This document shows, in pieces, positions 18,216-46,175 of a DNA stretch of 64,000 bases; the first letter of the stretch is position 1; each line of letters opens with the position of its first letter. The DNA lies in the NCBI GenBank assembly GCA_965197425.1, contig CBDANC010000014.1, forward strand, positions 128,001-192,000, read 5' to 3'. A model generated the notes under the pieces. It was not told the DNA's origin. It searched no databases and worked only from the letters and a program-made list of their open reading frames with translations. The position numbers were made by a program, and so were the translations under genes. Origin of the DNA: Bdellovibrionales bacterium. Lineage in GTDB: Bacteria > Bdellovibrionota > Bdellovibrionia > Bdellovibrionales > JAUICD01.

Positions 18216-18838
18216 TCTCTATTAAACTTCCCTATACCAATATCTGTCAAAGGATGCTTGCTTAACTGCTTTATCACCTTAAAAGGTATTGTGATAACAT
18301 CTGCACCTATCATCAAAGACTCCAAGACATGAACTGGACTTCTAACGCTAGCAACTAAAATTTTAGTATTAATAGCATAATTATCAAATATAGTTTTAAT
18401 GTCAGATACTAAGTTCATTCCAACTTCAGAAACATCATCAAGCCTTCCAACAAAAGGAGAAACATAACTAGCGCCAGCCTTAGCACATAAAACCGCCTGG
18501 ACTGCACTAAATACCAGGGTTACATTGGTATCAATTCCCTCAAGGCTTAATCCCTTCACTGCCTTTAAACCATCTAGAGTCATGGGAACTTTGACAACCA
18601 CATTGGGAGCAATTTTAGCAAGCTCCTTGCCTTGTTCGATCATTTGGTCCGCATTGTCACAAGTTACCTCAGCGTTTACAGGACCTGACACTACTGAGGC
18701 TATTTCTGATACAACCTCCGCAAAATCTCTACCAGACTTAGCAACCAAAGTAGGATTAGTTGTTACACCATCCACTAAACCAAACTCTAGAGCCTGCTTA
18801 ATCTCATCTATGTCTGCAGAATCAATAAAAAACTTCAT
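18194..18838 (-). CDS. tal: transaldolase / fructose-6-phosphate aldolase family
   Basis: [31 protein letters not shown]; upstream MRKTLN is repeat-derived. Confidence 0.92.
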
Positions 18839-18841
18839 ATT

Positions 18842-18914
18842 CAAGGTTTTCCTCATTGTTGCCCAGCTCTACACATGTCATCAAACTCATCCCCAAAGGT
18901 CTTCTCAACACTGA
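18842..18914. repeat. dispersed repeat, locus C (near-empty module plus truncated module)
   Basis: AAGGTTTTCC-tcattgttg-CCCAGCTCTACACATGTCATCAAACTCAT; mini-ORF 18890..18822 (-). Confidence 0.85.
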
Positions 18915-18957
18915 CCCCTCCAACAAGGTCTAGTCTAGCACAATGCCAATCTATAAC

Positions 18958-20397
18958 CTAGTTAGAAAACACCAGATCTGGATACACTTTCTTAAGCCTT
19001 TTAAGCCCACCCTCAAAAGCATAAGCCTCTAAACCAGATTCCCTTAGAGCCTGAACCGCCATAGCAGATAAAAAACCTTCGTGACAGTATAAAACATATT
19101 TTTTATCAATACTAAAGTTGGTCATGTCGATATCATCAAGCTCAAGATGTCTCGCAGATTTGATATGACACTTGTTAAAATCGGAAAGAGACTGACAGTC
19201 TATTATATCAAAAGTCTGGTCTAGCTTATCTAAATACATATTTTGGGGTTTTAAATTTATCGAACTTAAAAAATCTTCTTTTTTGTTTTTTATGCATTCA
19301 TCTATCAAACCAAAATCAAACTTTTTCTCTTCTTTTAAAACTGAGTCTAGATCAGGTCTGGAACTAACTTTTCCCTTCACAAGGTCACAATGCTCAGAAA
19401 CCTTCTCACATAACTTTCCAACTCCTAGTTCATAAGACTGATTTACAATATCGATCTTATTCATGCTTACCAATGGCCTTATCACCATTAGATCAGAAAC
19501 ATTTTCAATAACCTTCAAACTTTCAAGAGTTTGTGAGCTGACTTGACCTATAGACTCACCAGTTGCCATTACTTGAATACCCAAGTTAAAACCTACTATA
19601 TTTGCAATTTTGTACATTACTCTCTTTAGCACTATTTGCCTATACCTAGGGCCTACAGACTTAATTAATGCACGAGTAATTGGGTTGAAATTTATTGTAA
19701 TAAATCTGGGGCTATTGGGTTGAAATCTATCCGTTAGTTTTTTGATAATTTGCATCACCTGGAGCCTATAAGATTCATAACCAAAATTAAAAAACAAAAA
19801 ATCACAGTTAATACCCCTTTTCATCAATAAAAAAGCAGCTACTGTAGAATCAAATCCACCAGAATATAAAACCAAAGCTCTGCCCTGAGAAGCCATAGGC
19901 ATTCCTCCAAGACCCTTAACTCTACCAAGTCCAAAATGATAAGTGTTGTTTATGTACTCTACCCTTACCTCTATCTCTGGATTTGTTAAGTCAACTGCTC
20001 TTGCAAAAGGTAAAAGCTTTGAACCTATTGTACAGGCCAGTTCATTTGAACTATACTGACACCCACCAGAAGATTTCTTTACTTTAACCATAAAACTTTT
20101 TTTAGAAATCAAATCCTTAAAAAGCATAAGTGCAGTATTAGATATTTCCTTCATATCTCCCTTAGTTTCCCCCAAAACTTCAAAAATAGAACTTATCCCA
20201 GAAATATCATACAAAAAATCAAACTTAGAATCTGCAAGGATCATAATATGATTAAACCTTTTGTTGAGTTCTAACTTAATGTTCGAAGCTTTAGCTCTTT
20301 TGGAAATGTCAGACATCAAAATATTTATAAGCCTGTTTTTTTCCAAGCTCCCTTTTAAGGTAACCTCTGACGCATATCTAACGATAACTTTTTTCAT
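18958..20397 (-). CDS. thiI: tRNA 4-thiouridine synthase with THUMP and C-terminal rhodanese domains
   Basis: SGGFDS PP-loop, TGESIGQVSSQT, YCHEG; start MKKVIVRY. Confidence 0.9.
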   Translation of the reverse strand: MKKVIVRYASEVTLKGSLEKNRLINILMSDISKRAKASNIKLELNKRFNHIMILADSKFDFLYDISGISSIFEVLGETKGDMKEISNTALMLFKDLISKKSFMVKVKKSSGGCQYSSNELACTIGSKLLPFARAVDLTNPEIEVRVEYINNTYHFGLGRVKGLGGMPMASQGRALVLYSGGFDSTVAAFLLMKRGINCDFLFFNFGYESYRLQVMQIIKKLTDRFQPNSPRFITINFNPITRALIKSVGPRYRQIVLKRVMYKIANIVGFNLGIQVMATGESIGQVSSQTLESLKVIENVSDLMVIRPLVSMNKIDIVNQSYELGVGKLCEKVSEHCDLVKGKVSSRPDLDSVLKEEKKFDFGLIDECIKNKKEDFLSSINLKPQNMYLDKLDQTFDIIDCQSLSDFNKCHIKSARHLELDDIDMTNFSIDKKYVLYCHEGFLSAMAVQALRESGLEAYAFEGGLKRLKKVYPDLVFSN

Positions 20398-20538
20398 AAA
20401 GGTCTTCCTAATGAGGCAAAAAATGAGGAGGCTCTGCCTACTTTTTTTTGCCGAATGGTTGCCCAGCTCTCTACCACGATGCCGATACCCTCCCACAAGG
20501 TCTTCCCCAGCTCTACACGTGTCATCAAACTCATCCCC
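20398..20538. repeat. dispersed repeat, locus D (filled plus empty module)
   Basis: Two AAGGTCTTCC; mini-ORF 20540..20394 (-) bridges the DUF938 stop and the thiI start. Confidence 0.9.
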
Positions 20539-20541
20539 ATA

Positions 20542-21138
20542 TTACTGTTTTAAAAAATAAAGCGTACGGTTGTTAGCAGGCATTTCGTAATCTTTCTGTA
20601 AAGAGAAGTCAAAGTTTTGTATCTCATAAACAACTTTTTCAAAGTCTTTTATACTACTATGCTCATCCCTATTCCTAAGCCATAGATCAAAATTTCTGTT
20701 ACTTTCAGATGTAAATTGATTTGCGTAATTAAAAGGACCATAAATTATTATCTTTGCACCAGAACTTAACCTTTCCCCAAACTCCTTAAACAACAAACAT
20801 ACTTTTTCCCACGAAATCATATGCAAGACATTGGCACAAAAAACAGCTGTTACAGGGAGGTTAGGTAGAGGCGTTTCCCCTATGCTAAAAGTTCTAGGGC
20901 CTTGAAGGTTTTTTAACCCTGATTCAGACTTCCACATCTTAATCCCTTCGTGATTAGATTTAAAATCTGAGGTAACCCAAGTAATATCAGGCAGGTTCTG
21001 GGCAAAATACACAGCATGCTGTCCGGTACCAGATCCTATCTCAAACACAAAATCTTTTGTTTCCAAAATTTGTCTTAAAACTTCTAGTATAGGATCCTGG
21101 TTTCTCTTACACGCATCTGAGATAGGCTTCTTTTTCAT
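20542..21138 (-). CDS. DUF938 family SAM-dependent methyltransferase-like protein
   Basis: ACKRNQDPI, EIGSGTGQH, YGPF, MPANN. Confidence 0.88.
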   Translation of the reverse strand: MKKKPISDACKRNQDPILEVLRQILETKDFVFEIGSGTGQHAVYFAQNLPDITWVTSDFKSNHEGIKMWKSESGLKNLQGPRTFSIGETPLPNLPVTAVFCANVLHMISWEKVCLLFKEFGERLSSGAKIIIYGPFNYANQFTSESNRNFDLWLRNRDEHSSIKDFEKVVYEIQNFDFSLQKDYEMPANNRTLYFLKQ

Positions 21139-21370
21139 AAAGGTCTTCCCCAGCATTGATTGAGCCTAGCAAACAAACCGACTTGTTGGTTTTTTGCTAG
21201 GCGAATTACGTTTTGACACAGCCACTTAAAGTCTAAAACTAAACTAAGACTTTTTTCAATAAAGGTGAGGTTAGCGAACAGCAAATAAATCTGGCTTTGC
21301 CAGTTTTTTGCTGTGAGCACCTGTTTCACCAAGTGGTTGCCCAGATCTACACATGTCATCAAACTCATCC
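21139..21370. repeat. dispersed repeat, locus E (two hairpins)
   Basis: Conserved ends; mini-ORF 21368..21135 (-) ends GRPL* in ATGA overlap. Confidence 0.9.
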
Positions 21371-21409
21371 ACAAAAATGATAGAACCATAGTCAAACATA
21401 AAATGGCAA

Positions 21410-22111
21410 ATGAATTACAAAGTACAAAGCCACAACCACATAAAGTTATGTAAAAATAACTCCGATAAGGCGGTAATCATGGGGAAAAATAAAAAGAGCA
21501 TAAAATACACAGTAAGAGCAGTGGCAGCAGGGCTTTATACACTCTTACTGGTGGTTGGGTATCAAAACTGCTCCCTATATCAAAGCAAAATAGACACAGG
21601 AAAGGGAGGAGGAACATCACAAAACCCTGGGGACGACGGAGATAACAATAACAACGGTACTAGTAGAAGTAACTGCCAAATTATATCCCTATCTGATGGA
21701 GGAACAAAAACTGTACCAAACCACACATTCTCATGGATAGTAACAGAGCCAGATTGTATTGTGGAAGCCAAGCTAAACAATGGTAGTTGGCAGGTTTGTG
21801 ACTCACAAAATGCATATGGCTGTAAAGTTTCATTCATCTTACAACACAATTTTTCTATAGATCAATACGGCACACATACCTTAGATGTTAGAACTTATAC
21901 ATCTGAAGGTAATATACTTGATCTTGGGCAAGCCACTGTAACCATACAAAGACCACTAAATTGTGAATCATATCAAGAATGCGAACAGAGTCGGACGAAT
22001 CGCTTTCAGACACATTGTACTTGTGAGCCAAGCAATAATAATGGACATACTTGCTATAGCCTGTCATGCAACGGTAACCCTATAGATGACGAAGGACCAA
22101 CAGAACGGTAA
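21410..22111 (+). CDS. Cys-containing lipoprotein (likely start 21479)
   Basis: VVGYQNC signal; Ig-like and Cys-rich segments. Confidence 0.65.
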   Translation: MNYKVQSHNHIKLCKNNSDKAVIMGKNKKSIKYTVRAVAAGLYTLLLVVGYQNCSLYQSKIDTGKGGGTSQNPGDDGDNNNNGTSRSNCQIISLSDGGTKTVPNHTFSWIVTEPDCIVEAKLNNGSWQVCDSQNAYGCKVSFILQHNFSIDQYGTHTLDVRTYTSEGNILDLGQATVTIQRPLNCESYQECEQSRTNRFQTHCTCEPSNNNGHTCYSLSCNGNPIDDEGPTER

Positions 22112-22121
22112 TAAATGAAAA

Positions 22122-24251
22122 GTGAGAAAAAGTAAAAAGAGTCAAAGAAACAAAAGATTTAAAAAAAGCAAAACTTCCTCAGCTTTAGAAAATTTAGATA
22201 CAGACAAATACCTTGATAGAGAAATATCTTTTCTAGAATTTCAACTAAGAGTCTTAGAACAAGCCAAAGATAAAAGAATACCCATACTAGAAAGACTGAA
22301 ATTTTTGAATATTTTTAGCAACAACCTGGACGAATTCTTTATGAAAGATGTTGCTAGCTCTAAATTTTTAGAACTTAGCGATAGCACAAATTCCTATACT
22401 AAAATCAGGATGAAAATAATAAGAAAAAATGTTTCAAGCATGCTAAACCAAGCAAGTAGTTGTTTTGAAAATGACATAGCACTAGAACTAAAAAAACACA
22501 ATTTAGAAATAGCTACTTGGAATTCATTAGATGAAAAAGAAAAAAAATATCTTTCAAATTTATTTTCTCAAAGTATATTTCCTGTACTAACACCTCTTGC
22601 AGTTGATTCTGCACACCCCTTTCCACATATATCAAACTTATCAGTGTCATTAGCCGTGTCGCTGCGACACCCAGACAAAAAAAAGGAAATTCTGTTTTCC
22701 AGAGTTAAAATACCAAACATTCTACCATCTTGGTATTGCATAAACCCAGACGATACTAGCAAAAAACAAAAATGGATATCTACAAAAAATATAGTTCAAG
22801 CTCACCTACACTTACTTTTTCCTAAAATGGAAATTTTAAATAGTATGCTATTTAAGGTAACCAGAAATATAGAACTGGAAAAAGACGATGCTCACGCAGA
22901 TGATATCCTATCAATGATTGAAGAGGAATTACACGAAAGGAAGTTTGGTGAAGTTGTAAAACTAGAACATGGTGAGAACAAAGATGAATGGCTTATTAAT
23001 TTTCTGATAGAAGAGCTAGAAATTACTAAAGAGGATGTATTTGAAAATAAAAGTGACAATGTACTAGTTGGGTTCAAATCTATTCTAAAAGCAGAACACG
23101 ATAGCAACATGGTATTTGCACCATGGACACCCTTAACAAGCCATGAACTATCAAATGAAACAGCAAGTATTTTCTCCATAATAAGAAAACAAGATCTTTT
23201 ATTACATCATCCATATGAGAGCTACAGCTCCAGTGTAGAAAGATTTATATATGATGCAGCCAGAGATCCAAGGGTACTAATTATAAAAATGACACTTTAT
23301 AGAACAAATGAAGAAAGCTCTCTCATTCGCTCGCTCATAAGAGCAGTACAACTAGGAAAACAGGTTGTGGTGCTAGTTGAATTAAAAGCTAGGTTTGATG
23401 AAGAAAGAAACATATCTTGGGCCAAAAAACTAGAAGAGTATGGAATACATATTGTATATGGAATTGTAGGACTTAAAACACACAGTAAAACAGCTTTAGT
23501 TGTCAGAAAAGAATACGATTTACTGAAGTCCTATGCACATATAGGAACAGGTAATTATCACTCGCAAACCGCTAAGCTCTACACAGATTTTAGCCTTCTT
23601 ACTGCTAACAAAAAAATTACAAAGGATTTAACAGAGTTTTTTCACTTCTTAACAGGCAGATCTCTTCAAACAAATTATTTACACCTATTAGTAGCACCTG
23701 TAAATATGAAACAAAAATTTATAAAGTTAATAGATAATGAAATTGCTAATGCAAAAAAAGGCCTGCCTGCCCATATTATGCTGAAAATAAACAATATAGA
23801 ATACCTGGAAATGTGTCAAAAACTCTATGAGGCCTCAACTGCAGGTGTAAAAGTTGATATTTTGGCTAGAACAATATGCGCACTAAAACCAGGAATTAAA
23901 GGGTTAAGTGAAAATATAACCGTATATAGTATTGTCGATAGATTCTTAGAACATTCTAGACTTTATATTTTTGCAGATGGATCTAAACATTATGCCGATC
24001 ACAGGATATATATTGGATCAGCTGATTGGATGTACAGAAATCTACAAAATAGGATAGAAATGGCATGTCCTATCTTTGATGAAAGAAATAAACTGAAGTG
24101 CATAGAGAGCTTTAATATTATGCTAAAGGCAACAAATCAAAGATGGACACTTAATGCCGATGGCACCTATAAAAGAACAACTAACACAAACAATGAAGAA
24201 AGTGCTCAAGCACAACTAATGAAATTATATAAGAAGCAGCACAAACGTTAA
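22122..24251 (+). CDS. ppk1: polyphosphate kinase 1
   Basis: NLDEFFM, HPFPHISN, LHHPYES, GLKTHSK, RFLEHSR, GSADWM. Confidence 0.96.
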   Translation: MRKSKKSQRNKRFKKSKTSSALENLDTDKYLDREISFLEFQLRVLEQAKDKRIPILERLKFLNIFSNNLDEFFMKDVASSKFLELSDSTNSYTKIRMKIIRKNVSSMLNQASSCFENDIALELKKHNLEIATWNSLDEKEKKYLSNLFSQSIFPVLTPLAVDSAHPFPHISNLSVSLAVSLRHPDKKKEILFSRVKIPNILPSWYCINPDDTSKKQKWISTKNIVQAHLHLLFPKMEILNSMLFKVTRNIELEKDDAHADDILSMIEEELHERKFGEVVKLEHGENKDEWLINFLIEELEITKEDVFENKSDNVLVGFKSILKAEHDSNMVFAPWTPLTSHELSNETASIFSIIRKQDLLLHHPYESYSSSVERFIYDAARDPRVLIIKMTLYRTNEESSLIRSLIRAVQLGKQVVVLVELKARFDEERNISWAKKLEEYGIHIVYGIVGLKTHSKTALVVRKEYDLLKSYAHIGTGNYHSQTAKLYTDFSLLTANKKITKDLTEFFHFLTGRSLQTNYLHLLVAPVNMKQKFIKLIDNEIANAKKGLPAHIMLKINNIEYLEMCQKLYEASTAGVKVDILARTICALKPGIKGLSENITVYSIVDRFLEHSRLYIFADGSKHYADHRIYIGSADWMYRNLQNRIEMACPIFDERNKLKCIESFNIMLKATNQRWTLNADGTYKRTTNTNNEESAQAQLMKLYKKQHKR

Positions 24252-24509
24252 AGATTATTTATGCTTTTCTCGGGGATACTTGCTAAGCATACAACTACAT
24301 TTTTTGCTACATAAATAATAAAAATTACATTGAAGGAGGGATAGGTTATATTTTCCAGTAAGAATGATGTACAATGACCGTAAATCGTTGCTGGTATAAT
24401 ATAAAAAAATCAACTCTCTTACAGTAATTAGATATAGCACCTTTCACAAATAACAAGTAAGTATATTGGTATCTTTTCGTTAAGGTGAATTTAATATGAG
24501 GAAAAAATT

Positions 24510-25421
24510 ATGAGATTTACAAAGTACATAATATGTCTAGCAATTGTTCTTTCATCACAAGCATTTTGTTCACAAGCACTAGGTATGGGTTGTACAGAAG
24601 CCCTCAGTACTAAAGACATGAACTATAACTATTCAGAGGAGCTGGCCAATGCAATCGTAAATAACGATATAGAAGCATTAGGGGAATTTTCAGACAACGA
24701 CCCATATAACATATCGTATATGATTGTTTATGACCTTGATCTCTTTCCTGATTTGATTAAACAAAACCTTAAATCGTTTAGAATAGGATTTCTCACTGCA
24801 AGCACATTTAAACCATCTCTTAATAAAGCACAAAGAAAAGAGTTCTATGATTTTATATCAACATTGAAACCACTTAATACTCGTAAGGATCATCCAAATT
24901 ACCTGCGTAACTTAGATGGAACGATTTCATCATATACATATTCACAAGATAGTTCTTTTGTTATAACTGTTCTTGAGCTGGCAGTTGCGTTACATGGACC
25001 AAACAGTAAAATTGTAACTTTTCTTATTGGTCTTGATTACAATAATGGATATCACAATGTGTACGATTCGATTCCTCCACAAAGTTTAAATGAAAACGAA
25101 GCATCTTCATTGTTGCTAACAGCACTTGAAAAAGAAAATTTTAGATTATCACATGTTTTAGAAGCGATTACTCCTAATTGGCATAGCCTTAAAAGATCTT
25201 ATTTTTTTAGAAAACACATTGATTACGGAGCTTGGGAATTCCTAGATCAGGATCTCAAAGATAATATTGAAGTCTCTCTTGATGATCTTGCTTACGCATT
25301 TGCTTCAAAAAATCCAGAAGTTATTGAGATATTCTGGAAAAACAGAGATAAGAATGACTCACTTGTAAAACTACGTACCCAGTTAGAAGCATTTAGACAA
25401 GAATGGAATAATTACAAATAA
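24510..25421 (+). CDS. secreted hypothetical protein
   Basis: Signal-peptide-like N-terminus; SD GAGG. Confidence 0.6.
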   Translation: MRFTKYIICLAIVLSSQAFCSQALGMGCTEALSTKDMNYNYSEELANAIVNNDIEALGEFSDNDPYNISYMIVYDLDLFPDLIKQNLKSFRIGFLTASTFKPSLNKAQRKEFYDFISTLKPLNTRKDHPNYLRNLDGTISSYTYSQDSSFVITVLELAVALHGPNSKIVTFLIGLDYNNGYHNVYDSIPPQSLNENEASSLLLTALEKENFRLSHVLEAITPNWHSLKRSYFFRKHIDYGAWEFLDQDLKDNIEVSLDDLAYAFASKNPEVIEIFWKNRDKNDSLVKLRTQLEAFRQEWNNYK

Positions 25422-25643
25422 TAAAGCATTCCAAAAGATAAGGAATAACCCTTCTTTGTAGCAGTCACACTTAGTTGGTCTAGTGACAAATTTCAGTAAC
25501 AAAATTCCTATTCCTATCAGGTACTTATACCATTATAGCTAGGCACTGTGGCAACTGACTAAACCCATTTTTATGCTTTAATTTTGTGAGAATTTACCGA
25601 TATGTACTTATGGTAACGGATTGGTTATAAGTAGGAGATAAAG

Positions 25644-26060
25644 GTGTCTAGTTCTAAGATATTTATTGAAAGTGATGACGAGTTAGCTATAAAAAAGGCC
25701 AAAAAATGGGGAACTTCTAATGGCTTTGAAGTTGTTGTAAGCAGAAAAACAGAAACTGAAGAAACAAAAGACGGTAACTCTGGGTTAGAACTCCCTGAAG
25801 GAGCAACAACCGTGCTAACACACAAATTGGCAAATAACATTATAAATATACCATCAAATGGTGAAAACGATATAGTAAAACTACACGATGTCACCAGAGT
25901 TGCACTGGAATCTGCACTTAAGAAAACGAACGGGAACATAATGGCAACTTCTAAAGCATTGGGTATGGGAAGAGCAACAGTATATAGAAAAATAAGAATC
26001 TACAACATAGACAAATCATTTTACAGAAGAGAAAAACTCAGCTGGAAAAAAGCAGCTTAG
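25644..26060 (+). CDS. Fis-type HTH (HTH_8) regulator
   Basis: ALKKTNGNIMATSKALGMGRATVYRKI. Confidence 0.8.
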   Translation: MSSSKIFIESDDELAIKKAKKWGTSNGFEVVVSRKTETEETKDGNSGLELPEGATTVLTHKLANNIINIPSNGENDIVKLHDVTRVALESALKKTNGNIMATSKALGMGRATVYRKIRIYNIDKSFYRREKLSWKKAA

Positions 26061-26121
26061 CTTAAGGTTTTTTCATAGTTTATACCATTTAAACTTAACA
26101 ATTAAGACTTAAGCTAAATAA

Positions 26122-26439
26122 TTAAGTTTCTTTTTGATCTTTTTTATAAATAATTTTTCCCCAGTCATCTACATACTTTTTCACTGTAGGACAATCAATT
26201 TTTTCATAAATAGTTATGTCAAATAAATGTGGGCAGTCTATATCCTCAAGCTTAGATATCAAAGGTTTAACAGTGTTTTCAACACTTAGATCTTTTCCTA
26301 ATAGAGCAATATCAATATCTGAATCATCTCTATAATTGCCCTTAGCTCTTGAACCATAAAGTAAAGCTTCATCTATTTTAGGAAAAATTGATAATACAGC
26401 TTGTACTTCATTTATAATTTTGTCACTCAACCCAAACAT
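26122..26439 (-). CDS. minimal nucleotidyltransferase (MNT/MntA-like)
   Basis: LYGSRAKG...DSDIDI. Confidence 0.85.
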   Translation of the reverse strand: MFGLSDKIINEVQAVLSIFPKIDEALLYGSRAKGNYRDDSDIDIALLGKDLSVENTVKPLISKLEDIDCPHLFDITIYEKIDCPTVKKYVDDWGKIIYKKDQKET

Positions 26440-26538
26440 TAAATTTCAACCATATTTATTACTAACAACAATATTATAATTAGATATACGCAAGTATCAA
26501 TATGTTTCAAGACTCAATCGACAAGATAAAATGGGGGT

Positions 26539-26631: not shown

Positions 26632-26637
26632 GAACAC

Positions 26638-30271: not shown

Positions 30272-30895
30272 TTATCTAGAATAAAACTCTACGATCATGT
30301 TCTCTTCAACCTGCAAAGAAACCTCTTCCCTTGAAGGTAACGCCTTGACCTCACCTTGAAACTTGCCGTGATCAGCCACTAACCAAGAAGGCAGTTGTCT
30401 TTTTTTAGAAGACTCAATACCAGCCATTATTTTGATATCTCTCTTCTTCTCCTCCACAACAACCATATCATCAACTTTTAAAACGGCACTTGAAACATTT
30501 GCCCTTTTAGAATTTATACTAAAATGATTGTGAGAGATTAACTGTCTGGCTTCTCTCCTAGAAGAAGCATACCCCAAGGTATAAACCACATTGTCAAATC
30601 GCATCTCTAATTGTCTTAATAAGTTTAATCCAGTATCACCCTTAACTCTGTTTGCATTTTGGTAGTATTTTCGAAATTGGCCCTCTAGCACACCATAATA
30701 TCTTCTAGCCTTCTGCTTCTCTCTCAACTGTAAAGCAAACTCCGAAAATTTCAGCCTTCTCTGACCAGCCTGCCCTGGAGGATAAGATCTTCTCTCATAA
30801 GAACACTTGTCCAAATAACAACGATCTCCCTTGAGAAAAAGCTTCATGCCTTCTCTTCTGCACAATTTACAAGAACTTTCTATAATCTTACTCAT
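30272..30895 (-). CDS. rpsD: 30S ribosomal protein S4
   Basis: CKLCRREG, QLREKQK, IVEFYSR. Confidence 0.97.
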   Translation of the reverse strand: MSKIIESSCKLCRREGMKLFLKGDRCYLDKCSYERRSYPPGQAGQRRLKFSEFALQLREKQKARRYYGVLEGQFRKYYQNANRVKGDTGLNLLRQLEMRFDNVVYTLGYASSRREARQLISHNHFSINSKRANVSSAVLKVDDMVVVEEKKRDIKIMAGIESSKKRQLPSWLVADHGKFQGEVKALPSREEVSLQVEENMIVEFYSR

Positions 30896-31156
30896 AAAGG
30901 TCTTCCTAATGAGGCTAAAAACAAGTGGACTTGTTCACTTTTTTTAGCCGAATGGTTGCCCAGCTCTACACATGTCATCAAACTCATCTCATAAAGGTCT
31001 TCCACAACACTGATTGAACCTGGCAACAAGTTGGCTCTGCCGACTTTTGCCAGGTGAATTACGTTTTGACACAGCCACTTAAAATCTAAAGGCAAACCAA
31101 AACTTTTCAAAGCCTGGTGGTTGTCCAACTCTACACATGTCATTAAATTCATCTCC
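30896..31156. repeat. dispersed repeat, locus F (two full modules between rpsK and rpsD)
   Basis: Mini-ORF 31152..30892 (-) runs through both modules to an ATGA overlap. Confidence 0.92.
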
Positions 31157-36731: not shown

Positions 36732-36890
36732 TAAGGTCTTCCTAATCCAACACTGATTGAGCATGACGAATAATCTGGCTTCGCCAGATTTTTGTCATAC
36801 AAGTTACGTTGCCCCACAGTAATTTTAAAACCAAAACTTTTCAAAGCCTGGTGGTTGCCCACCTTTATACATGTCATCAAACTCACCTCC
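36732..36890. repeat. dispersed repeat, locus G (rpsN-rpsH)
   Basis: SD GGAGGT; mini-ORF 36877..36731 (-) ends in TAATG overlap. Confidence 0.9.
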
Positions 36891-37084: not shown

Positions 37085-37112
37085 ACTATCTACCCTCCCA
37101 AAAGTTAAAACC

Positions 37113-37176
37113 AAGGCCTTCTATTTTTTTTGCAGGGTGGTTGCCCAGCTTTACATGTGTCATATAACTACCTTCC
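37113..37176. repeat. dispersed repeat, locus H (internally deleted; rplE-rpsN)
   Basis: AAGGCCTTC...GGTTGCCCAGCT; mini-ORF 37163..37086 (-) stops 1 nt before the rpsN TTG. Confidence 0.8.
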
Positions 37177-37185
37177 TTTCACTTA

Positions 37186-37725
37186 TCATTTTCTAAAAGG
37201 CATACCTAAAGCCTGCAATAACAAATGGGCCTCTTTGTCCGATTTGGCGGTTGTACAAACTGTAATGTTCATTCCTCTTATTTGATCCGCTTTATCGTAA
37301 TTAATTTCTGGAAACACAATTTGCTCTTTCAAACCCATGTTATAGTTACCTCTTCCATCAAAACCCTTTGGTGATATACCACGAAAATCCCTAACTCTAG
37401 GCAACACAATAGAAACCAGTCTATCCAAAAAAGCCCACATCTTTTCCCTTCTCAAAGTTACATAAGCCCCCATAGGCAAATGTTTTCTTAATTTAAAGTT
37501 GGCCACAGCTTTTTTAGATCTAGCAATCATTGCCCCTTGACCCGTTATATCAGTGAGCTCACCTGCAATAACACCAGCAACTTTGGCATTTTTAACAGCT
37601 TCTCTTCCAGCACAAACACTGATAACTATCTTCTCTAAACGAGGAGTTTGCATAATGGATTTATGACCTAAATCCTTAAAAAGCTTACCCCTAACCTCAG
37701 ATGTATATAAATCAAACAACCTCAT
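37186..37725 (-). CDS. rplE: 50S ribosomal protein L5
   Basis: PRVRDFRG, FDGRGNY. Confidence 0.97.
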   Translation of the reverse strand: MRLFDLYTSEVRGKLFKDLGHKSIMQTPRLEKIVISVCAGREAVKNAKVAGVIAGELTDITGQGAMIARSKKAVANFKLRKHLPMGAYVTLRREKMWAFLDRLVSIVLPRVRDFRGISPKGFDGRGNYNMGLKEQIVFPEINYDKADQIRGMNITVCTTAKSDKEAHLLLQALGMPFRK

Positions 37726-37727
37726 CT

Positions 37728-38096
37728 CTAAACTACCTCAGGTGCGACAGAAATTATTCTCATAAATTTTTTAGCTCTCAACTCTCTGGCAACAGGGCCA
37801 AAAATTCTAGTACCTATAGGTTCCTTGTTGTTGTTTACAAGCACAACAGCATTTTCATCAAACCGAACATAGCTACCATCCTGTCTTCTGGTTTTGTTAA
37901 TAGTTCTCACCAGTACAGCCTTTGCCTTCTCACCTTTTTTGACTTTAGATCTAGGAGCAGCTTCCTTTATACTAACCACAATAATATCACCCACTCTAGC
38001 AACCCTTCTTCTAGTTCCACCAAGTACTTTTATGCACATGACTTCCTTTGCACCAGAGTTATCAGAAACTTTAATTCTAGACTGAACTTGTATCAT
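37728..38096 (-). CDS. rplN: 50S ribosomal protein L14
   Basis: [18 protein letters not shown]. Confidence 0.97.
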
Positions 38097-38356
38097 TAAG
38101 CCCTCGAACCTTTAGCTAAAATTTTGGCCATCTTCCAGCACTTTGTTTTGCTGATAGGCCTTGTTTCGTATATCAAAACTTTGTCTCCTAACTCTGCCTG
38201 ATTTTTTTCATCATGAGCTTTAAATTTACATTTCTTTTTTATAAACTTACCAAACCTAGGATGCTTAACACTCCTAACTACCTCAACAGTGACAGTCTTA
38301 TCCATCTTGGTGCTTATAACATGCCCTGTGACAGAATTAATTTTTTTCTTTTCCAA
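38096..38356 (-). CDS. rpsQ: 30S ribosomal protein S17
   Basis: [14 protein letters not shown]. Confidence 0.96.
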
Positions 38357-38564
38357 CAGATATCTCCTTTGAGCCTGTTTTACTCAAACTACTCAAAACT
38401 GTATTGATCCTAGCAATGTCCCTTCTCAAGATCCTAATCTCAAGTGGATTCCCAGCTTGTTTCATATGACTTTTCATCTTTATACCAAAAATTTTCTCAG
38501 CCAAAACATTACGCTTAGACAACAACTCCTTTCTAGGTAAATCTTTTATATCCTTAAATTTCAT
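38337..38564 (-). CDS. rpmC: 50S ribosomal protein L29
   Basis: IRILRRDIARINT; position. Confidence 0.93.
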   Translation of the reverse strand: MKFKDIKDLPRKELLSKRNVLAEKIFGIKMKSHMKQAGNPLEIRILRRDIARINTVLSSLSKTGSKEISVGKEKN

Positions 38565-38566
38565 AT

Positions 38567-38830
38567 AAAGGCCTTCCTAATGAGGCTAAAAACAAGTGGA
38601 CTTGTTCACTTTTTTTAGCCGAGTGGTTGTCCAGCTCTACACATGTCATCAAACTCATCCTCAAGGCCTTCCCCAACATTGATTGAATCTGGCAACAAGT
38701 TGGCTCTGCCGACTTTTGCCAGGTGAATTACGTTTTGACACAATCACTTTGAAACCAAAACATCTTTTGACCGAACGGTTGCCCAGCTCTACACATGTCA
38801 TCAAACTCATTTCCATCAAGGCCTTCCTCA
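38567..38830. repeat. dispersed repeat, locus I (2 modules plus a stub; rplP-rpmC)
   Basis: Three AAGGCCTTCC; mini-ORFs 38831..38661 and 38658..38554 (-). Confidence 0.92.
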
Positions 38831-38836
38831 TACTTT

Positions 38837-39244
38837 CTAAGCTCTCATTAAAAACTTTGTCTTAATAGGTAGTTTGTTTCCGGCCAACCTAAAAGCTTCC
38901 TTAGCTTGATCAGCAGTCACACCAGCCATTTCAAAAATAACAGTTCCAGGTTTTACATTTGCAACATAATACTCAGGACTTCCTTTACCACTACCCATTC
39001 TTGTTTCAGCAGGTTTTTTAGTAGTTGGAGTGTGAGGAAAAATTCTAATCCAAACTTTTCCACCACGCTTCACAGACCTACTTATAGCAATTCTACTTGC
39101 CTCTATCTGACGAGATGTAAGCTTCCCACCTGACAGAGCTTGAAGGCCAAACTCACCAAAATCAATGTCATTGCAAGACCAGGCTTTGCCTTTCACATCA
39201 TACCTAAACTGCTTTCTACGTTTAAGACGTTTTGGGCTAAGCAT
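38837..39244 (-). CDS. rplP: 50S ribosomal protein L16
   Basis: [14 protein letters not shown]. Confidence 0.97.
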
Positions 39245-39917
39245 TTGATACACCTCCACCTAAAACATCACTAGCTTTTGACTTTTGATTTATTATGTCA
39301 CCAGTATAAATCCAAACCTTAACTCCAATTACTCCGTAAGTAGTTTTAGCTTCCCTTGTTCCATAATCTATATCGGCCCTTAATGTGTGAAGCGGCACAC
39401 TCTTTTCTGTGTACCACTCTGTTCTAGCTATCTCTGCACCATCAAGTCTACCAGCAACCTGAACCTTGATACCTTTAACTCCACCCCTAATAGCAGACTG
39501 AAGCGCCTTTTTTAAAGCACGCCTCCAAGAAACTCGTTTCTCCAACTGTACTGCTATATTTTCTGCCACAAGCCTTGCATCAGTATCAGGTTTTCTTATT
39601 TCCTGTATGTTCACAAAAACTTCGTTCTTGGTCATTTTGTTTATTTCATCTCTTAGAGAATCAATCCCAACACCCTTTTTCCCAATCACAAATCCAGGTC
39701 TTGCTGAAGACACAATTATCTTGATCTTATTAGCTGCTCTCTCTATCTCCACCTTGGAAACCCCAGCATTCTTGAGTTTCTTAGAAACATATTCTCTTAA
39801 CTTAAAATCCTCATGTAAGTTTTTTGCAAAATGCTTTTTTTGCTTAACATACCAACGAGAATCCCAAGTCTTGTTTATTCCAACCCTAAACCCTATAGGG
39901 TTAACCTTTTGTCCCAC
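39237..39917 (-). CDS. rpsC: 30S ribosomal protein S3
   Basis: [21 protein letters not shown]. Confidence 0.97.
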
Positions 39918-40251
39918 TATGCCTCTCCTCTAATACAATTTTAATGTGACTGGTTTTTTTTCTTATAAGTGACGCCCTTCCTCTCGCTCTAGGCATTTGT
40001 CTCTTCAAGTGCGGTCCTTGATCTACATTTATCGCCTTCACATATAAACTACCTACATCAATAGACTGCTTATACTCTGCATTTGCTATTGCAGAATCCA
40101 ACAAAGTCCTAATCAACCTAGCAGGCTTTCTATCAATCATAGATAGCCTACTTATAGCCTCAGAAACAGGCCTACCTCTAACAGCATCAGCTACAAGCCT
40201 GGCTTTCATTGAGCCCATTCTAACAAATTTTAAACTAGCACTTACACGCAT
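39901..40251 (-). CDS. rplV: 50S ribosomal protein L22
   Basis: [18 protein letters not shown]. Confidence 0.96.
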
Positions 40252-40253
40252 CT

Positions 40254-40345
40254 TAAGGCCTTCCGAATGAGGCAAAAAATAAGGGGGCTTTGCCTACTTT
40301 TTTTGCCGAATGGTTGCCCAGCTCTATATGTGTCATATAATTCAC
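40254..40345. repeat. dispersed repeat, locus J (rpsS-rplV)
   Basis: Mini-ORF 40336..40253 (-) ends TAA-G-ATG. Confidence 0.9.
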
Positions 40346-40366
40346 TCTCACTAACTCCTCATAAAC

Positions 40367-40645
40367 CTATTTTTTAGCAGCCTTCCTATCCCCAGAATGT
40401 CCCTTAAATATCCTAGTTGGAGAAAATTCACCAAACTTATGCCCTATCATGTTTTCTGTAACATAAACAGGAACAAACTTTTTTCCATTGTGTACCGCAA
40501 ATGTCAAACCAACAGCATCTGGTATAATTGTTGATCTTCTTGACCAGGTCTTAATCACCTTTCTGCTATTTGCCTTTTTTGCCTCATCAATCTTTTTTAA
40601 AAGATGATCATCAACAAATGGTCCTTTTTTAATAGAACGACCCAT
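40367..40645 (-). CDS. rpsS: 30S ribosomal protein S19
   Basis: KTWSRRS, GHKFGEF. Confidence 0.97.
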
Positions 40646-40667
40646 AAATTACCTCTATTATTCTCCC

Positions 40668-41501
40668 TTACCTCTTCTTTTTCTTCTTTCTTGAAACTAT
40701 ATACTTATCTGTAGATTTATTATTTCTGGTTTTATGACCCTTACAAGGTTTGCCCCAAGGAGTTCTAGGATGATTACCCTTACCCTTTCCTTCACCACCA
40801 CCCATAGGGTGATCAATTGGGTTTTGACACATCCCTCTTACATGAGGCCTCTTACCCAACCACCTTGTTCTACCAGCCTTACCGATACTTAAGTTTTCTC
40901 TTTCAACATTACCAACTTGCCCTACTGTAGCCCTGCAGCTAGCCAGAACTTTTCTAACTTCACCAGAAGGAAGTTTGATCAACACATAACCTTTTTCCTT
41001 AGCTACCAGATTTGCACAAACCCCAGCACTTCTAGCTAATTGACCGCCCTTACCAGGACGCATCTCTACATTGTGAATCATTGAACCAAGTGGAATTTTA
41101 TCCAACTTCATGCAATTGCCAGGTTTTATATCAACACCCTTGTCAGAAGAAACAATTGCATCCCCAACTTTTAGATTAACAGGAGATATAATATAACCCT
41201 TGCTACCATCCTGATACTGAATCAAAGATACGCGAGAAGAACGGTTTGGATCATACTCAACCGACTTAACAGTGGCAGGCACATCTGTTTTAGTTCTATA
41301 AAAATCAACGAGCCTATAGCGCCTTTTATGACCACCACCCCTAAACCTTACAGTGATGTTACCTCTATTATTTCTTCCAGCCTTGCTAAGTTTTCTAGAC
41401 AAAAGAGATTTCTCTGGATTTTTTGAAGTAATTTCAGAAAAATCAAATCCTGTCATAAACCTTCTAGAAGAAGTAATTGGTTTGTATTTTTTTAACGCCA
41501 T
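40668..41501 (-). CDS. rplB: 50S ribosomal protein L2
   Basis: [16 protein letters not shown]. Confidence 0.97.
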
Positions 41502-41508
41502 CTAAAAA

Positions 41509-41799
41509 CTAAACTCCCTCAAAAACCCCAATTTTTTCACCTTCTCTCAACTTAACTAATGCCTTTTTTAAATAGACAACCCTACTTCCGCTGCCTGCTC
41601 TTAGAGACTTCTTTTTAGATCTTCTAAAAATAGAAGTTCTCACATTTAAAACCTTCACAGAAAAAATCTGCTCTACAGCCTTTTTGATTTGAGGCTTTTT
41701 AGCCCGCCTATCAACCTCAAATGAATATACATTCATCGACTGATCAAGCGAACTTTTCTCAGTAATAATTGGCTTTTTTAAAATTTTATACACTAACAA
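41509..41799 (-). CDS. rplW: 50S ribosomal protein L23
   Basis: PIITEKS, KKALVKL. Confidence 0.95.
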   Translation of the reverse strand: MLVYKILKKPIITEKSSLDQSMNVYSFEVDRRAKKPQIKKAVEQIFSVKVLNVRTSIFRRSKKKSLRAGSGSRVVYLKKALVKLREGEKIGVFEGV

Positions 41800-41857
41800 C
41801 CTCTATATTCTCTATATTTAATAACTATATTTACCAGGCAAACTAAGCTTCAATCCG

Positions 41858-42535
41858 CTAAGAACATCTCTTTATGATGCTATCTACTGCATTTTTTGAA
41901 ACAATCACACGGTTATATTTTAGTAAGTCATACACATTAAGCCCATCTACAGAATAATACCTGATATTACGTATATTTTTAGAAGCTCTCTTAAATGTAT
42001 GGTCCACATCTTTATCTATTAAAACTGCCTTCTCACTACCCATATTCTTTAATTTAAGAGCAACCTCTTTGGTTTTTGGTTTATCTATTTTTATTTCATT
42101 CACAACATGTAATCTATCACTCTCAAGCAAGTGAGATAATGCAGATACAAGACCAAGCCTCTTTATTTTTTTAGGCAAAGTATAGGAATAATCTCTGGGA
42201 GTAGGACCAAATGTAACACCACCACCTTCCATAAGAGGAGATCTTATAGAACCCTGTCTTGCATTCCCTGTTCCCTTTTGTCTAAACGGTTTCTTACCCC
42301 CACCAGATACTTCACTTCTATCTTTTGTCTTGTGACATCCTCTGCGTCTTTTGGCTAACTGCCACTTAACCACTGAGTGCATAACAGGCTTATTAACCCT
42401 GGCTCCAAATATATCCACAGGTAACTTTACACTATCTACCTTTTTTTTATTCCAATCCAAAACATCCACTTGTATGGACTGCGCCTTATTATTTTTTTTG
42501 GTTGCCTTATCTTTTTTAGTTACCTTATCAGCCAT
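41858..42535 (-). CDS. rplD: 50S ribosomal protein L4
   Basis: KPFRQKGTGNARQGS. Confidence 0.97.
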   Translation of the reverse strand: MADKVTKKDKATKKNNKAQSIQVDVLDWNKKKVDSVKLPVDIFGARVNKPVMHSVVKWQLAKRRRGCHKTKDRSEVSGGGKKPFRQKGTGNARQGSIRSPLMEGGGVTFGPTPRDYSYTLPKKIKRLGLVSALSHLLESDRLHVVNEIKIDKPKTKEVALKLKNMGSEKAVLIDKDVDHTFKRASKNIRNIRYYSVDGLNVYDLLKYNRVIVSKNAVDSIIKRCS

Positions 42536-42556
42536 ATAAATTCCCTAAATCAAGTC

Positions 42557-43357
42557 CTAAGCACTAGCCTGATTTGTCAAATTAACCTGTTTTTCTAATT
42601 TAACCAGAGTGTTTCTGGCTCCAGGGATTCCACCTTTTACTAACAAAACATTGTCATCCGGTAAAACTTCTGCAACTTTGACATTTCTTACTGTAACTGT
42701 CTTAAAACCAAACCTACCTGGCATGCTTTTTCCCGGCAATACCCTACCTGGTTCTTCACACATTCCAACGGATCCTGGTTTTCTGTGAAACCTAGATCCA
42801 TGAGAAGCAGGGCCCCCACTAAATCCATACCTTTTCACAGTACCAGTAAACCCTCTACCCTTGGATTTGGAGGTTATTTTTACAATATCCCCCTTCTTTA
42901 AACTATCTATTGATACCTTTGCTCCTGGCTCGATACCATCCAGGGAGCTACACCTTATCTCTTTTGCAAATTTAACTGCATTAGTAAGTTTAGATTTTTT
43001 TAAATGACCAGCTTCTGACTTTTTCAAATTGGATTTTTTACCAGATACAATTTGAACAGCACTATAACCATCTTTTTCGTCAGACTTAACCTGAGAGATC
43101 ACCCAGTCATCAAACTTTAAAACAGTAACCGGCACCATGGCACCTGCAGAATCATATACAACAGACATACCTAGCTTTACCGCATAAAGACCATTTAATT
43201 GCACGGTTTTAGGCCCTACCTTAGATTTTGGCTCTTCAGATTTTTCGGATTTTGATTTTGCAGAATCAGTATCTTCCGACTCAGATACTTGAGAACCTTC
43301 TGTGGGGTCTTGATAGCCCTCTTTATTATCTTCAGATGTTTTGCTCTCCAAATTCAT
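42557..43357 (-). CDS. rplC: 50S ribosomal protein L3 with N-terminal extension
   Basis: KLGM, DGYSAVQ, SKGRGF, GPASHGS. Confidence 0.96.
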   Translation of the reverse strand: MNLESKTSEDNKEGYQDPTEGSQVSESEDTDSAKSKSEKSEEPKSKVGPKTVQLNGLYAVKLGMSVVYDSAGAMVPVTVLKFDDWVISQVKSDEKDGYSAVQIVSGKKSNLKKSEAGHLKKSKLTNAVKFAKEIRCSSLDGIEPGAKVSIDSLKKGDIVKITSKSKGRGFTGTVKRYGFSGGPASHGSRFHRKPGSVGMCEEPGRVLPGKSMPGRFGFKTVTVRNVKVAEVLPDDNVLLVKGGIPGARNTLVKLEKQVNLTNQASA

Positions 43358-43367
43358 AAATACTCCA

Positions 43368-43688
43368 CTAAACCACAGATAATTTTATTTCAACATCTAT
43401 ACCAGCAGATAGATCCAGCTTCATCAGCTGATCCACAGTCTGTTGAGTAGGTTCTAAAATATCCAAAAGCCTCTTGTGCGTTCTGATTTCGAACTGTTCC
43501 CTAGATTTTTTGTCCACATGAGGAGATCTCAATACTGTGTATCTATTGATGTTTGTAGGTAAAGCAACAGGCCCTGATACACCAGCACCAGTCCTTTTAA
43601 CTATATCCACGATATCCCTAGTGGATCTGTCCAATAACCTATGATCAAAGGCTCTTAGACGTATTCTTATTTTCTGACTCTGTTGCAT
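43368..43688 (-). CDS. rpsJ: 30S ribosomal protein S10
   Basis: [14 protein letters not shown]. Confidence 0.97.
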
Positions 43689-43958
43689 ACCAAACCCAGA
43701 GGGGAAAACAAACCCCTACTATTCTTCCTAAAAACAATTTCCAAAGTTAAAACAAGCCCCAGACCAGAGGCAAGCCACCTATGGATACTAAGACCTTTAA
43801 AACACCAAAATCAATCTATATACCAAACAAACAACCTATTAAACCAAACCCATTTGCACAAAAATCACCCAAATGTACATCAAGTCCTATCAATACAACG
43901 CCGTAATAATCAAACCAATGCACAACATTAGCTCACATGGTGATGTGAGCTGGGGCGG

Positions 43959-43988
43959 AGTATAGGCTTAAGATTATAAATTGGTCAA
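43959..43988 (-). promoter_or_regulatory. putative S10-operon sigma70 promoter
   Basis: TTGACC-18-TATACT, then GC-rich discriminator CCGCCCC and a 9-bp hairpin AGCTCACAT/ATGTGAGCT. Confidence 0.6.
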
Positions 43989-44002
43989 TAAAAAATTTCT
44001 GC

Positions 44003-46054
44003 TCAAGCTCCAAACAGTATTTGAGACTCTAATTTCTCCGGCAGTCTTTCGAAATGGCTTACTTTCATTGAAAAGCTTCCTCTACCAGATGTAAGCGATC
44101 TCAAGGTCGTAGCGTATCCAAACACCTCGCTTACTGGCACATAGGCATTTATTACCTGCATATTACCTACCTCCTCCACATTGTTGATTCTTCCTCTCTT
44201 GGAGTTGAGATCCCCCACCACAGATCCTAAAAAATTTTTCGGCACTGTTACTTCCATACTGGACACTGGTTCCAGTAAATGTGGGTTTCCAAGTTCCATG
44301 GCTTTTTTAGTAGCCCTAGAAGCTGCAACTTTCAGAGCAAGTTCTGTTGGCACAAAATCGCTATCCTCTCTTGAATCCAATAAAGTTACAGTGGTAGAAA
44401 TCACTTTATTTCCAGCCAATGATCCATTTTCTAAAGCCTCCTCTATACCTTGTACTGCAAATGAGGCTCCGTCTTTAGTAAACTTACTGTTGTTTACTAT
44501 TTTGTTTTTATCTTCATTATTTGCCTCTACCTTTACCTCAACTGTAGCCATGTGATTTTCTGTACCTATAAGACGCTCAAAATGATATTTAGAAGTAGCC
44601 TTAGTAGTAACACATTCTCTATATGAAACTTGCGGCTTACCTCTGTTGACCTTTACTCCAAACTCCCTATCCAATCTATCTAAGACAATTTCTATGTGAA
44701 GTTCTCCCATTCCAAAAACAAGCATTTGCCCTGTATCTTGATTTTCTTTAAAGGAAAAAGAAGGATCTTCATCTTGAATTTTTTTTAAGCATTCACCTAA
44801 TTTTTTTTCATCATTTGAGGTTTTAGGCTCTATAGCCTGAGAGATAACTGGCTCTGGAAAACCAATTGGCTCTAGCAATACATGAGTTTTTCGGTCACAC
44901 AGAGTGTCTCCAGTTTTTGTCCACTTCAACCCAACAACAGCCCCTATATCTCCAGCCTTTAGCACATCCGTCTCTGTCCTTGAGTTTGCATGCATTTTCA
45001 AAATTTTGGCTACTCGTTCTTTTCTATTGGAAGTTGTGTTTTCCAAAGCCTGCCCTACTTTTAAAATTCCGGAATATACTCTCAAATAAGTCAACATCCC
45101 AGCGAATGGATCAACTTGTAGTTTAAATGCCAAAGAAACCACTGGTTCACTGTATGAGGCTTTACACAAAACTTCTTTTCCATTTTTATTTAATCCCGAA
45201 ACACCTTTCACATCCAAGGGGCTTGGCAGATAATCTGTAACAGCATCTAATACAAGTTGAACTGACTTGTTTTTTAGTGCACTTCCACAAAATACAGGGA
45301 ACACCTTTTGTTTAATAGTTCCAGCTCTTATTGCGGCCTTAATTTGACAAGCTTTTATTGGAGATTCCGATAAATATGCCTCCATTAACTCATTATCAAA
45401 TTCAGAAACTTGCTCCAGCAGATCATTTTTCAACTGCTCTGCCTTTTTAACATACTGAGAAGGAATGTCTTTGTACTCTGGTTTTAAATCGACCCCATCT
45501 CCTTCCCATACCACTAATTTACCTGCTACCACATCCAAAACACCTTTGAAGTTATCTTCACTTCCAACAGGCCAGTGTAAGACGGCAGGAGTAACACACA
45601 ATTTTTCTTTTATTGATTCAAGGCACATTTCATAGTCAGCACCTAGTCTATCCATTTTATTTATAAAACACATCCTAGGTACATTGTACTTATCTGCCTG
45701 ATACCAAACGGTTTCAGATTGAGGTTCAACTCCATTTACAGCATCGAATACACACAATGCACCATCTAACACTCTAAGCGATCTCTCCACTTCTAGGGTA
45801 AAATCAACATGCCCCGGAGTATCTATTAGGTTGATATGGTGTGTTTTCCAAGCGCAAGTAGTTGCAGCAGAGGTAATAGTGATTCCTCTCTCTTGCTCCT
45901 GTTGCATCCAATCCATTACCGTGTTTCCGTAATGAACCTCCCCTACCTTATGACTTTTGCCGGTGTAATATAAAATTCTCTCTGTTAAAGTAGTCTTTCC
46001 GGCATCTATATGTGCCATTATTCCAAGATTTCTAATTTTACTTAAATCATCCAT
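44003..46054 (-). CDS. fusA: elongation factor G family, divergent (EF-G2-like)
   Basis: AHIDAGKTT, RGITI, DTPGH, NKMD; altered domain IV. Confidence 0.9.
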   Translation of the reverse strand: MDDLSKIRNLGIMAHIDAGKTTLTERILYYTGKSHKVGEVHYGNTVMDWMQQEQERGITITSAATTCAWKTHHINLIDTPGHVDFTLEVERSLRVLDGALCVFDAVNGVEPQSETVWYQADKYNVPRMCFINKMDRLGADYEMCLESIKEKLCVTPAVLHWPVGSEDNFKGVLDVVAGKLVVWEGDGVDLKPEYKDIPSQYVKKAEQLKNDLLEQVSEFDNELMEAYLSESPIKACQIKAAIRAGTIKQKVFPVFCGSALKNKSVQLVLDAVTDYLPSPLDVKGVSGLNKNGKEVLCKASYSEPVVSLAFKLQVDPFAGMLTYLRVYSGILKVGQALENTTSNRKERVAKILKMHANSRTETDVLKAGDIGAVVGLKWTKTGDTLCDRKTHVLLEPIGFPEPVISQAIEPKTSNDEKKLGECLKKIQDEDPSFSFKENQDTGQMLVFGMGELHIEIVLDRLDREFGVKVNRGKPQVSYRECVTTKATSKYHFERLIGTENHMATVEVKVEANNEDKNKIVNNSKFTKDGASFAVQGIEEALENGSLAGNKVISTTVTLLDSREDSDFVPTELALKVAASRATKKAMELGNPHLLEPVSSMEVTVPKNFLGSVVGDLNSKRGRINNVEEVGNMQVINAYVPVSEVFGYATTLRSLTSGRGSFSMKVSHFERLPEKLESQILFGA

Positions 46055-46173
46055 AAAGGTCTCAGCAAGAACTGAAAGTACCTTGGCGAAATACAGCGCG
46101 AAGCACAAGTGTAGCCAAGATACTCTCAGTATCAGAGTTGCCCAGCTCTACACATGTCATCAAACTCATTCCC
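46055..46173. repeat. dispersed repeat, locus K (bioY-fusA), different internal hairpin
   Basis: GTTGCCCAGCTCTACACATGTCATCAAACTCAT; mini-ORF 46175..46062 (-). Confidence 0.88.
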
Positions 46174-46175
46174 AT

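Follow-up and report, generated by a model that had tools for sequence, protein, structure and literature searches.

A modular hairpin repeat whose open reading frames may carry ribosomes across gene junctions in a Bdellovibrionales genome

Results

Repeat insertions and open frames in the window

The window analysed here is a 64,000-nt stretch (contig C14, positions 128001-192000) of the 1.6-Mb, 35% GC genome of an uncultured Bdellovibrionales bacterium (G000). On its minus strand, a modular hairpin repeat is inserted ahead of nine protein-coding genes, several of them in a ribosomal-protein (r-protein) cluster, and at all nine junctions an ATG frame runs through the insert without a stop and ends −17 to +7 nt from the next start codon, negative values being overlaps (Table 1). 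These mini open reading frames (ORFs) had been noticed from the letters of the DNA alone, and translation of the minus strand from the ATGs named in that sequence-only reading reproduced every one of them. Also confirmed were the upstream spacings of the thiI frame, which opens 1 nt past the DUF938 stop, and of the fusA frame, which directly follows that of bioY (0 nt), and one module is indeed read as KVGRA before rpsD and as KSRQS before rpmC. Host gene starts were fixed by alignment with orthologues from a sister genome of the same genus (G001), and tal, thiI, DUF938, bioY and fusA were identified via Pfam.

The accompanying claim that the mini-ORFs bridge each insertion stands for seven loci. 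Those before DUF938 and tal are leader ORFs rather than bridges, because no gene precedes DUF938 on its strand and the ATG of the tal mini-ORF is 67 nt downstream of the thiI stop. Since a fixed tail in front of a gene that begins with ATGA yields a −4 overlap automatically, what carries information is the matching open frame that precedes it. None of seven mini-ORFs searched against Pfam had a match, and an Rfam scan of the window returned two tRNAs and one sub-threshold match only, with no family matching the repeat. Contigs from run X1, possibly the source sample, span the rpsH/rpsN and rplV/fusA inserts with zero differences, and contigs of a ~97% identical relative from a second study enter the rpsD, rpmC and rplV inserts without spanning them. 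The gene preceding fusA (window 44003-46826) is bioY, not rpsL-rpsG, likewise in G001.

Table 1 Repeat-associated ORFs and arrays in the window, with offsets (nt) from the upstream stop (in) and to the next start (out), and the corresponding junction in the sister genome.
Feature	Position	Strand	In	Out	Junction in G001	Remarks
Mini-ORF before tal, 22 codons, truncated repeat	18822..18890	−		−17		Stop 17 nt into tal start
Bridge ORF DUF938 to thiI, 48 codons	20394..20540	−	+1	−4	Gap 3 nt	Reads through a second head motif in another frame
Leader ORF before DUF938, 77 codons	21135..21368	−		−4		
Bridge ORF rpsK to rpsD, 86 codons, two repeat units	30892..31152	−	+20	−4	Gap 5 nt (+5)	AGGAG precedes the head ATG
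Bridge ORF rpsN to rpsH, 53 codons	36731..36892	−	+6	−1	−1 overlap	Shine-Dalgarno GGAGGTGA ahead of ATG at 36877
Two-step chain rplE to rpsN	37086..37189	−	−4	+1	Gap 65 nt (+65)	Offsets −4, −4, +1: 9-codon ORF 37189..37160 (−4 in), then 25-codon repeat ORF 37163..37086 (−4 in, +1 out)
Two-ORF chain rplP to rpmC	38554..38831	−	+5	−11	Gap 5 nt (+5)	56 codons 38831..38661, then 34 codons 38658..38554
Pair of ORFs rpsS to rplV	40253..40362	−		+1	−1 overlap	3-codon ORF 40362..40351, then 27-codon repeat ORF 40336..40253
Bridge ORF bioY to fusA, 37 codons	46062..46175	−	0	+7	Genes overlap	Crosses a strong hairpin (z −3.96) with variant tail
Head-less array, same family (internal control)	8160..8346, ends approximate	−				Tail abuts stop codon of convergent ORF 7788..8162
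Head-less array, same family (internal control)	8540..8740, ends approximate	−				Upstream of tRNA at 8501

The repeat family across the genome

A repeat unit is built from a ~30-nt linker, GCTGGGCAACC, at least one irregular hairpin and a tail, in most cases GGAAGACCTT, and units stand in tandem or nested arrays. The genome holds 233 arrays, 205 of at least 45 nt and the longest ~450 nt, with 78 sense-sense, 55 antisense-antisense and 51 and 43 mixed orientations. The element ends are alike in direct, not inverted, orientation, and a consensus fold of eight copies contains 15 pairs, one of them with a two-sided change. For counts, 161 of the 233 arrays were kept; arrays were excluded if they measured less than 55 nt, lay within a gene or lacked a recognisable tail. 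We called an array abutting when its tail lies at most 6 nt from a sense start, as is the case for 24 of the 161 with a scored tail; many tails adjoin an antisense gene's stop codon, 16 of them at distance 0.

The start codons of the mini-ORFs belong to a linker class bearing a ribosome-binding site (RBS) and an ATG, hereafter the head, which makes up 23 of 154 linkers (31 ATG heads under a looser search). Thirteen of these 23 sit in start-abutting arrays, against 7 of 82 for the commonest linker class. The sequence-only reading had every element begin with such an ATG end; this is true of the nine junctions but not genome-wide, and two arrays in the window lack it. Most copies are head-less and are found at gene ends or in antisense orientation. 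Because the Shine-Dalgarno (SD) motif and ATG are confined to a minority, relaying ribosomes across the insert is not a trait of every copy. At C14:296433-296518, the ATGA of a head does double duty: the upstream gene now stops at it, and a 31-codon ORF that ends 14 nt inside tatD begins there.

Searches for the family elsewhere gave little. The exact head-tail pattern occurred in one of 200 relatives from the order, as a single chance-like match, and BLAST of the rpsD array against 40 relatives produced weak short matches in two. Pattern matches in GTDB (25), metagenomes (35) and viruses (4) were single matches, and BLAST against a repeat library matched none. A likeness by eye to the c-di-GMP riboswitch and to attC boxes was dropped after no Rfam match was found and the ends proved not complementary.

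Open frames at abutting arrays

An abutting array was scored as passing if an ATG frame opening inside it or shortly upstream ended −20 to +12 nt from the gene start or was fused to the gene, and the 137 control arrays were scored for an ATG frame that reaches the tail. Genome-wide, frame ends are non-random with respect to the next start: 19 of 24 abutting arrays pass, compared with 39 of the 137 remaining ones (Fisher p 4e-6), with the caveat that this and the other p-values of the array tests overstate the case because the copies are related. A first form of the test had given 19 of 24 observed against ~5 expected. The 19 are placed for coupling with the next gene or fused to it, nine of them overlapping its start by −4. 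Outside the window 11 of 16 abutting arrays pass (p 0.003), and among arrays of at most 200 nt the counts are 16 of 18 abutting against 21 of 85 others. By hand count, operon-internal abutting arrays pass in 16 of 17 cases and those before first genes in 3 of 7. Genes behind passing arrays outside the window include rpoC, smc, cmk, sufS, pckA, rsmE and a CusA-family gene.

The heads themselves follow the same pattern. Specifically, the distance from head to tail fits the frame in nine of ten abutting ATG-head units and in 21 of 62 others (p 0.001), and a stop within the first 11 codons occurs in 8 of 31 heads, seven of which are in non-abutting arrays (hand count). The SD of the head is strong (median −6.0 kcal/mol; genes −4.2, random ATGs −1.1). 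In addition, several arrays reach the same outcome via an ordinary linker or another frame, and different hairpins, linkers and frames converge on it. The peptide is not conserved and open frames are enriched at operon-interrupting copies, in agreement with the earlier suggestion that openness rather than peptide is kept.

RNA around the abutted starts is far more structured (−24.1 versus −15.5 kcal/mol). Occlusion of the start by the tail hairpin was seen in single folds, disappeared in ensemble accessibility and was rejected. Sigma-70-like sites in the repeat are at chance level (32 versus 39.6 and 8 versus 8.7).

Empty sites and a head-less family in the sister genome

The interrupted junctions are empty in G001 and, where fetched, in G002-G004. 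For the comparison of filled and empty sites, which draws on the single pair G000 and G001, we kept 517 gene pairs adjacent in both and dropped pairs without a G001-aligned start. Of the junctions that are tight in G001 (at most 15 nt), 20 of 337 hold an insert in G000; in the reverse direction the G001 repeat occupies 0 of 272 junctions tight in G000 (p 7e-6; one genome pair). We then counted an insert as chained when an ATG-frame chain crosses it with a largest gap of at most 35 nt. Full chaining was found by hand count at 11 of 16 sense inserts in tight junctions and at 0 of 4 antisense ones; sense inserts at loose junctions gave 4 of 25, and gaps free of repeats 9 of 63 (Fisher p 0.001 and 4e-5). 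A further multi-ORF chain lies at C12:203843. Admitting GTG and TTG starts made the chain criterion too permissive, and only ATG chains were counted. As a separate observation, the rpsQ-rplN junction of G004, a family relative, carries a 795-nt tandemly repeated insert in the r-protein cluster that is unrelated by eye.

The repeat of G001 forms 143 arrays with the same layout, related end motifs and a different sequence. Because the layout is shared, the two families are probably homologous. SD plus ATG is present in 0 of 79 G001 units, and tails abutting a start number 0 of 81 by pattern, with one variant-tail case by eye. Twenty of the 81 tails abut an antisense stop codon, and G001 hairpins (e.g. 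C1:121003-121241) have internal loops that are near-identical on both sides.

A repeat-borne start in hemB

The single intact porphobilinogen synthase gene, hemB (C13:253069-254191), carries a 163-nt insert in its first codons, between AAGACCT copies at C13:253077 and 253240 (7-nt duplication). Read from its original ATG, hemB now stops after 21 codons. The head ATG is in frame with the gene, and ahead of residue 92 of the open frame all in-frame start codons belong to the insert. HemB should carry ~45 additional N-terminal residues of repeat origin. Because its starts lie in the insert, repeat sequence would be translated here, provided that hemB is expressed and its RNA unspliced. A second in-frame fusion, at C6:11594, is begun by a −4 overlap.

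Direct repeats are visible by eye at further sites, with ATGA on both sides at rpmC and ATGGA at rpsH, and 27 of 161 arrays have a tail-like core at their 5' end (background 4.8%). The hemB duplication suggests insertion through recombination at the tail core, a route that would also explain the tandem arrays and that draws on one clear site, hemB, together with the 27 arrays.

Candidate mobilisers

A Y1 HUH transposase in the genome is a feature of REP/REPIN elements with RAYT. Matches to this transposase (PF01797) were absent from G000, G001 and G002 and present in G003 and G004. No tyrosine recombinase (PF00589) matched in G000, against matches in 14 of 14 control genomes; without a PF00589 match, XerC and XerD went undetected in G000, a genome scored 99% complete. 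Searches of G000 for reverse transcriptase, IS110 and TnpB-type proteins gave no match, and its only DDE transposase match is on contaminant-like contig C11. This contig has a second r-protein cluster, lower identity to G001 and no repeat array, and probably comes from another organism. G000 and G001 have one resolvase apiece, neither of which was seen to have repeat ends beside it, and Rpn-type genes (PF04754) number 16 in G001 versus one in G000, on the small contig C4. A miniature inverted-repeat transposable element would have terminal inverted repeats and a cognate transposase; the G000 repeat shows neither.

Cassettes encoding a four-helix-bundle protein (PF05635, 23S_rRNA_IVP), ~19 in G000 (C6, C12-C15; e.g. 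C12:183944-184237 and C15:352894-353250), are flanked by short tandem repeats. Five of these genes hold an in-frame repeat module at the same site; the module is 66 nt long in 23 of 28 genomic copies. Matches number 14 in G002, 19 in G004 and none in G001 and G003. We rejected the four-helix-bundle genes as a required mobiliser and, because G001 has the repeat family without any of them, the cassettes look like targets instead.

Discussion

We favour, with a probability of roughly 0.7, the view that the family is a selfish repeat and that its RBS-bearing variant can remain within operons because ribosomes translate across the insert. In G000 a non-autonomous modular hairpin repeat spreads with a preference for gene boundaries. 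Within a tight operon junction, 80-280 nt of untranslated, structured sequence would break coupling and expose the RNA to Rho; Rho is present in G000, which makes such polarity plausible. A ribosome starting at the head, or re-starting from the upstream stop, could instead cross the hairpins in any open frame and stop within ~20 nt of the next start, and copies would persist in junctions mainly under that condition. Gain of the head would have opened operon interiors to the repeat, site-by-site selection would then hold the frame open, and the peptides would be by-products. From sequence, we infer translation of the mini-ORFs, most strongly from hemB, and translational coupling to the next gene. 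The sequence-only reading had likewise pictured a mobile repeat that neutralises its own polarity; the enrichment of open frames in operons, the tightness of the junctions before insertion and the presence of Rho agree with it, but the design is not family-wide.

Several observations weigh against this view. Five of the 24 abutting arrays, one operon-internal, have no such ORF, one pass begins inside the upstream gene, 28% of control arrays pass as well, and bridging copies are not independent because several are near-identical. Five of the 16 tight sense junctions fail the chain test, and the comparison of junctions rests on one sister genome. An SD of ordinary strength is supplied to the next gene by the tail (median −4.2 kcal/mol, with 20 of 24 reaching −4 or better), and predicted accessibility of the start region is 0.44 at abutting arrays and 0.45 at other genes (p 0.24), so that initiation may not depend on coupling. 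The inserts do not resemble terminators, with one weak intrinsic terminator on the mRNA strand inside an insert and totals near chance, and no mobilising enzyme was identified in G000.

The ordinary SD of the tail invites the explanation that the tail is a replacement RBS for the next gene and that the open frames hitch-hike on one recently copied master unit. Thirteen tails stand exactly 2 nt ahead of a sense start with an SD of typical strength, a 58-nt unit is nearly unchanged before rpsD, rpmC, cmk and pckA, and the −4 overlap arises automatically. This we consider unlikely, as the same outcome is reached from different hairpins, linkers and frames, ORFs are chained at rplE-rpsN, rplP-rpmC and C12:203843, early stops fall mostly in non-abutting heads, and hemB needs a start within the insert.

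Slightly less probable again is that the host has domesticated the inserts and retains them to tune or regulate r-protein and rpoC expression via leader translation. Such a role would suit the six inserts in one r-protein cluster and the one at rpoC, the contigs of the ~97% relative that run into the rpsD, rpmC and rplV inserts, and the dependence of the host on its hemB copy. However, peptide and length are not conserved, the sites are empty in G001 and, where fetched, G002-G004, and most copies are antisense or outside operons; for the domesticated coupling device that the sequence-only reading had offered as an alternative, we found no positive evidence. The frame tuning and the SD+ATG head would be left unexplained if inserts were removed or skipped in RNA (as intervening sequences, by splicing or by ribosome hopping) and the frames were irrelevant. 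Exact removal between the two AAGACCT copies would restore hemB, and several of the 19 four-helix-bundle matches in G000, named after 23S rRNA intervening sequences in Pfam, contain the repeat module. With no Rfam match, no reverse transcriptase and a G001 family that exists without any four-helix-bundle match, we regard RNA removal as very improbable.

Returning to tolerance through translation, a stronger version can be put forward only tentatively, and we think it doubtful as a whole. Gain of the SD+ATG linker would be the key innovation that let one sublineage enter r-protein and RNA-polymerase operons closed to its head-less sister family; the host would now depend on it at hemB, and the repeat would move by an undescribed mechanism that recombines at the AAGACCT core, neither genome having a recognised transposase.

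The notion of a repeat that hides in an operon by ribosome relay has rested mainly on MIRUs, where the passages of PMC12548453 that treat it state it as likely rather than demonstrated. The family described here offers a natural experiment: it occurs with and without an RBS head, the head-less sister species stays out of tight junctions, frames are tuned by single bases, and the start of a housekeeping gene now lies within the repeat. The junction set would suit reporter tests of the stop-start distance tolerated in coupling. As a caution, annotation will mistake mini-ORFs and N-terminal extensions of this kind for small proteins.

Comparison with known systems

The sequence-only reading recognised no described family of this design, a statement that does not hold in view of MIRUs (PMC12548453), attC short ORFs and ORF-11 (PMC8876359) and REP2 (PMC3184786), compared here through the passages of these papers that describe them. 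In the openly accessible literature, nothing nearer to the G000 family was found than these three.

Pneumococcal BOX elements are modular, non-autonomous hairpin arrays of variable length, some with ORFs (PMC3184786). The modular, variable-length hairpin arrays are common to the G000 repeat; the passages on BOX report no coupling design, and no mobilising insertion sequence was identified in G000. Neisserial REP2 carries a promoter, an RBS and an ATG, has no terminal inverted repeats and can start a host ORF (PMC3184786). Repeat-borne RBS and ATG are likewise used by host ORFs in G000 (hemB, C6:11594), in a minority of copies only. Unlike REP2, which has a promoter and fuses to the gene, the G000 repeat has promoter-like sites not above chance and a frame that mostly stops at the junction.

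Closer in mechanism are integron ORF-11 and the short ORFs of attC sites, which have their own SD, are non-functional and were shown experimentally to carry ribosomes through the hairpin of the recombination site to the next start (PMC8876359). The likeness would lie in this passage through a hairpin; in contrast to integrons, G000 has no tyrosine recombinase match and no cassette array, and its repeats stand singly between housekeeping genes.

MIRUs are apparently mobile repeats at start codons, with an internal ORF coupled to the downstream gene at −4 that likely eases insertion (PMC12548453); they measure 40-100 bp, occur in 40-50 copies in mycobacteria and show tetranucleotide direct repeats at filled sites (PMC3184786). 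As judged from published description rather than by sequence, the G000 repeat shares with them the mobile appearance, an internal ORF placed for coupling and the proposed harmless insertion (PMC12548453), and in both cases filled and empty sites differ among relatives. The coupling of MIRUs has its counterpart in the 19 of 24 abutting G000 arrays that are coupled or fused. Unlike MIRUs, most G000 copies lie away from start codons, in either orientation, and they form longer modular arrays (205 of at least 45 nt) in a non-mycobacterial host. Only a minority of copies have the SD-led linker variant that provides the ORF start, overlaps range from −17 to +7, and a head-less family exists in the sister species. 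The G000 family functions like MIRUs but falls outside them on host, size and targeting.

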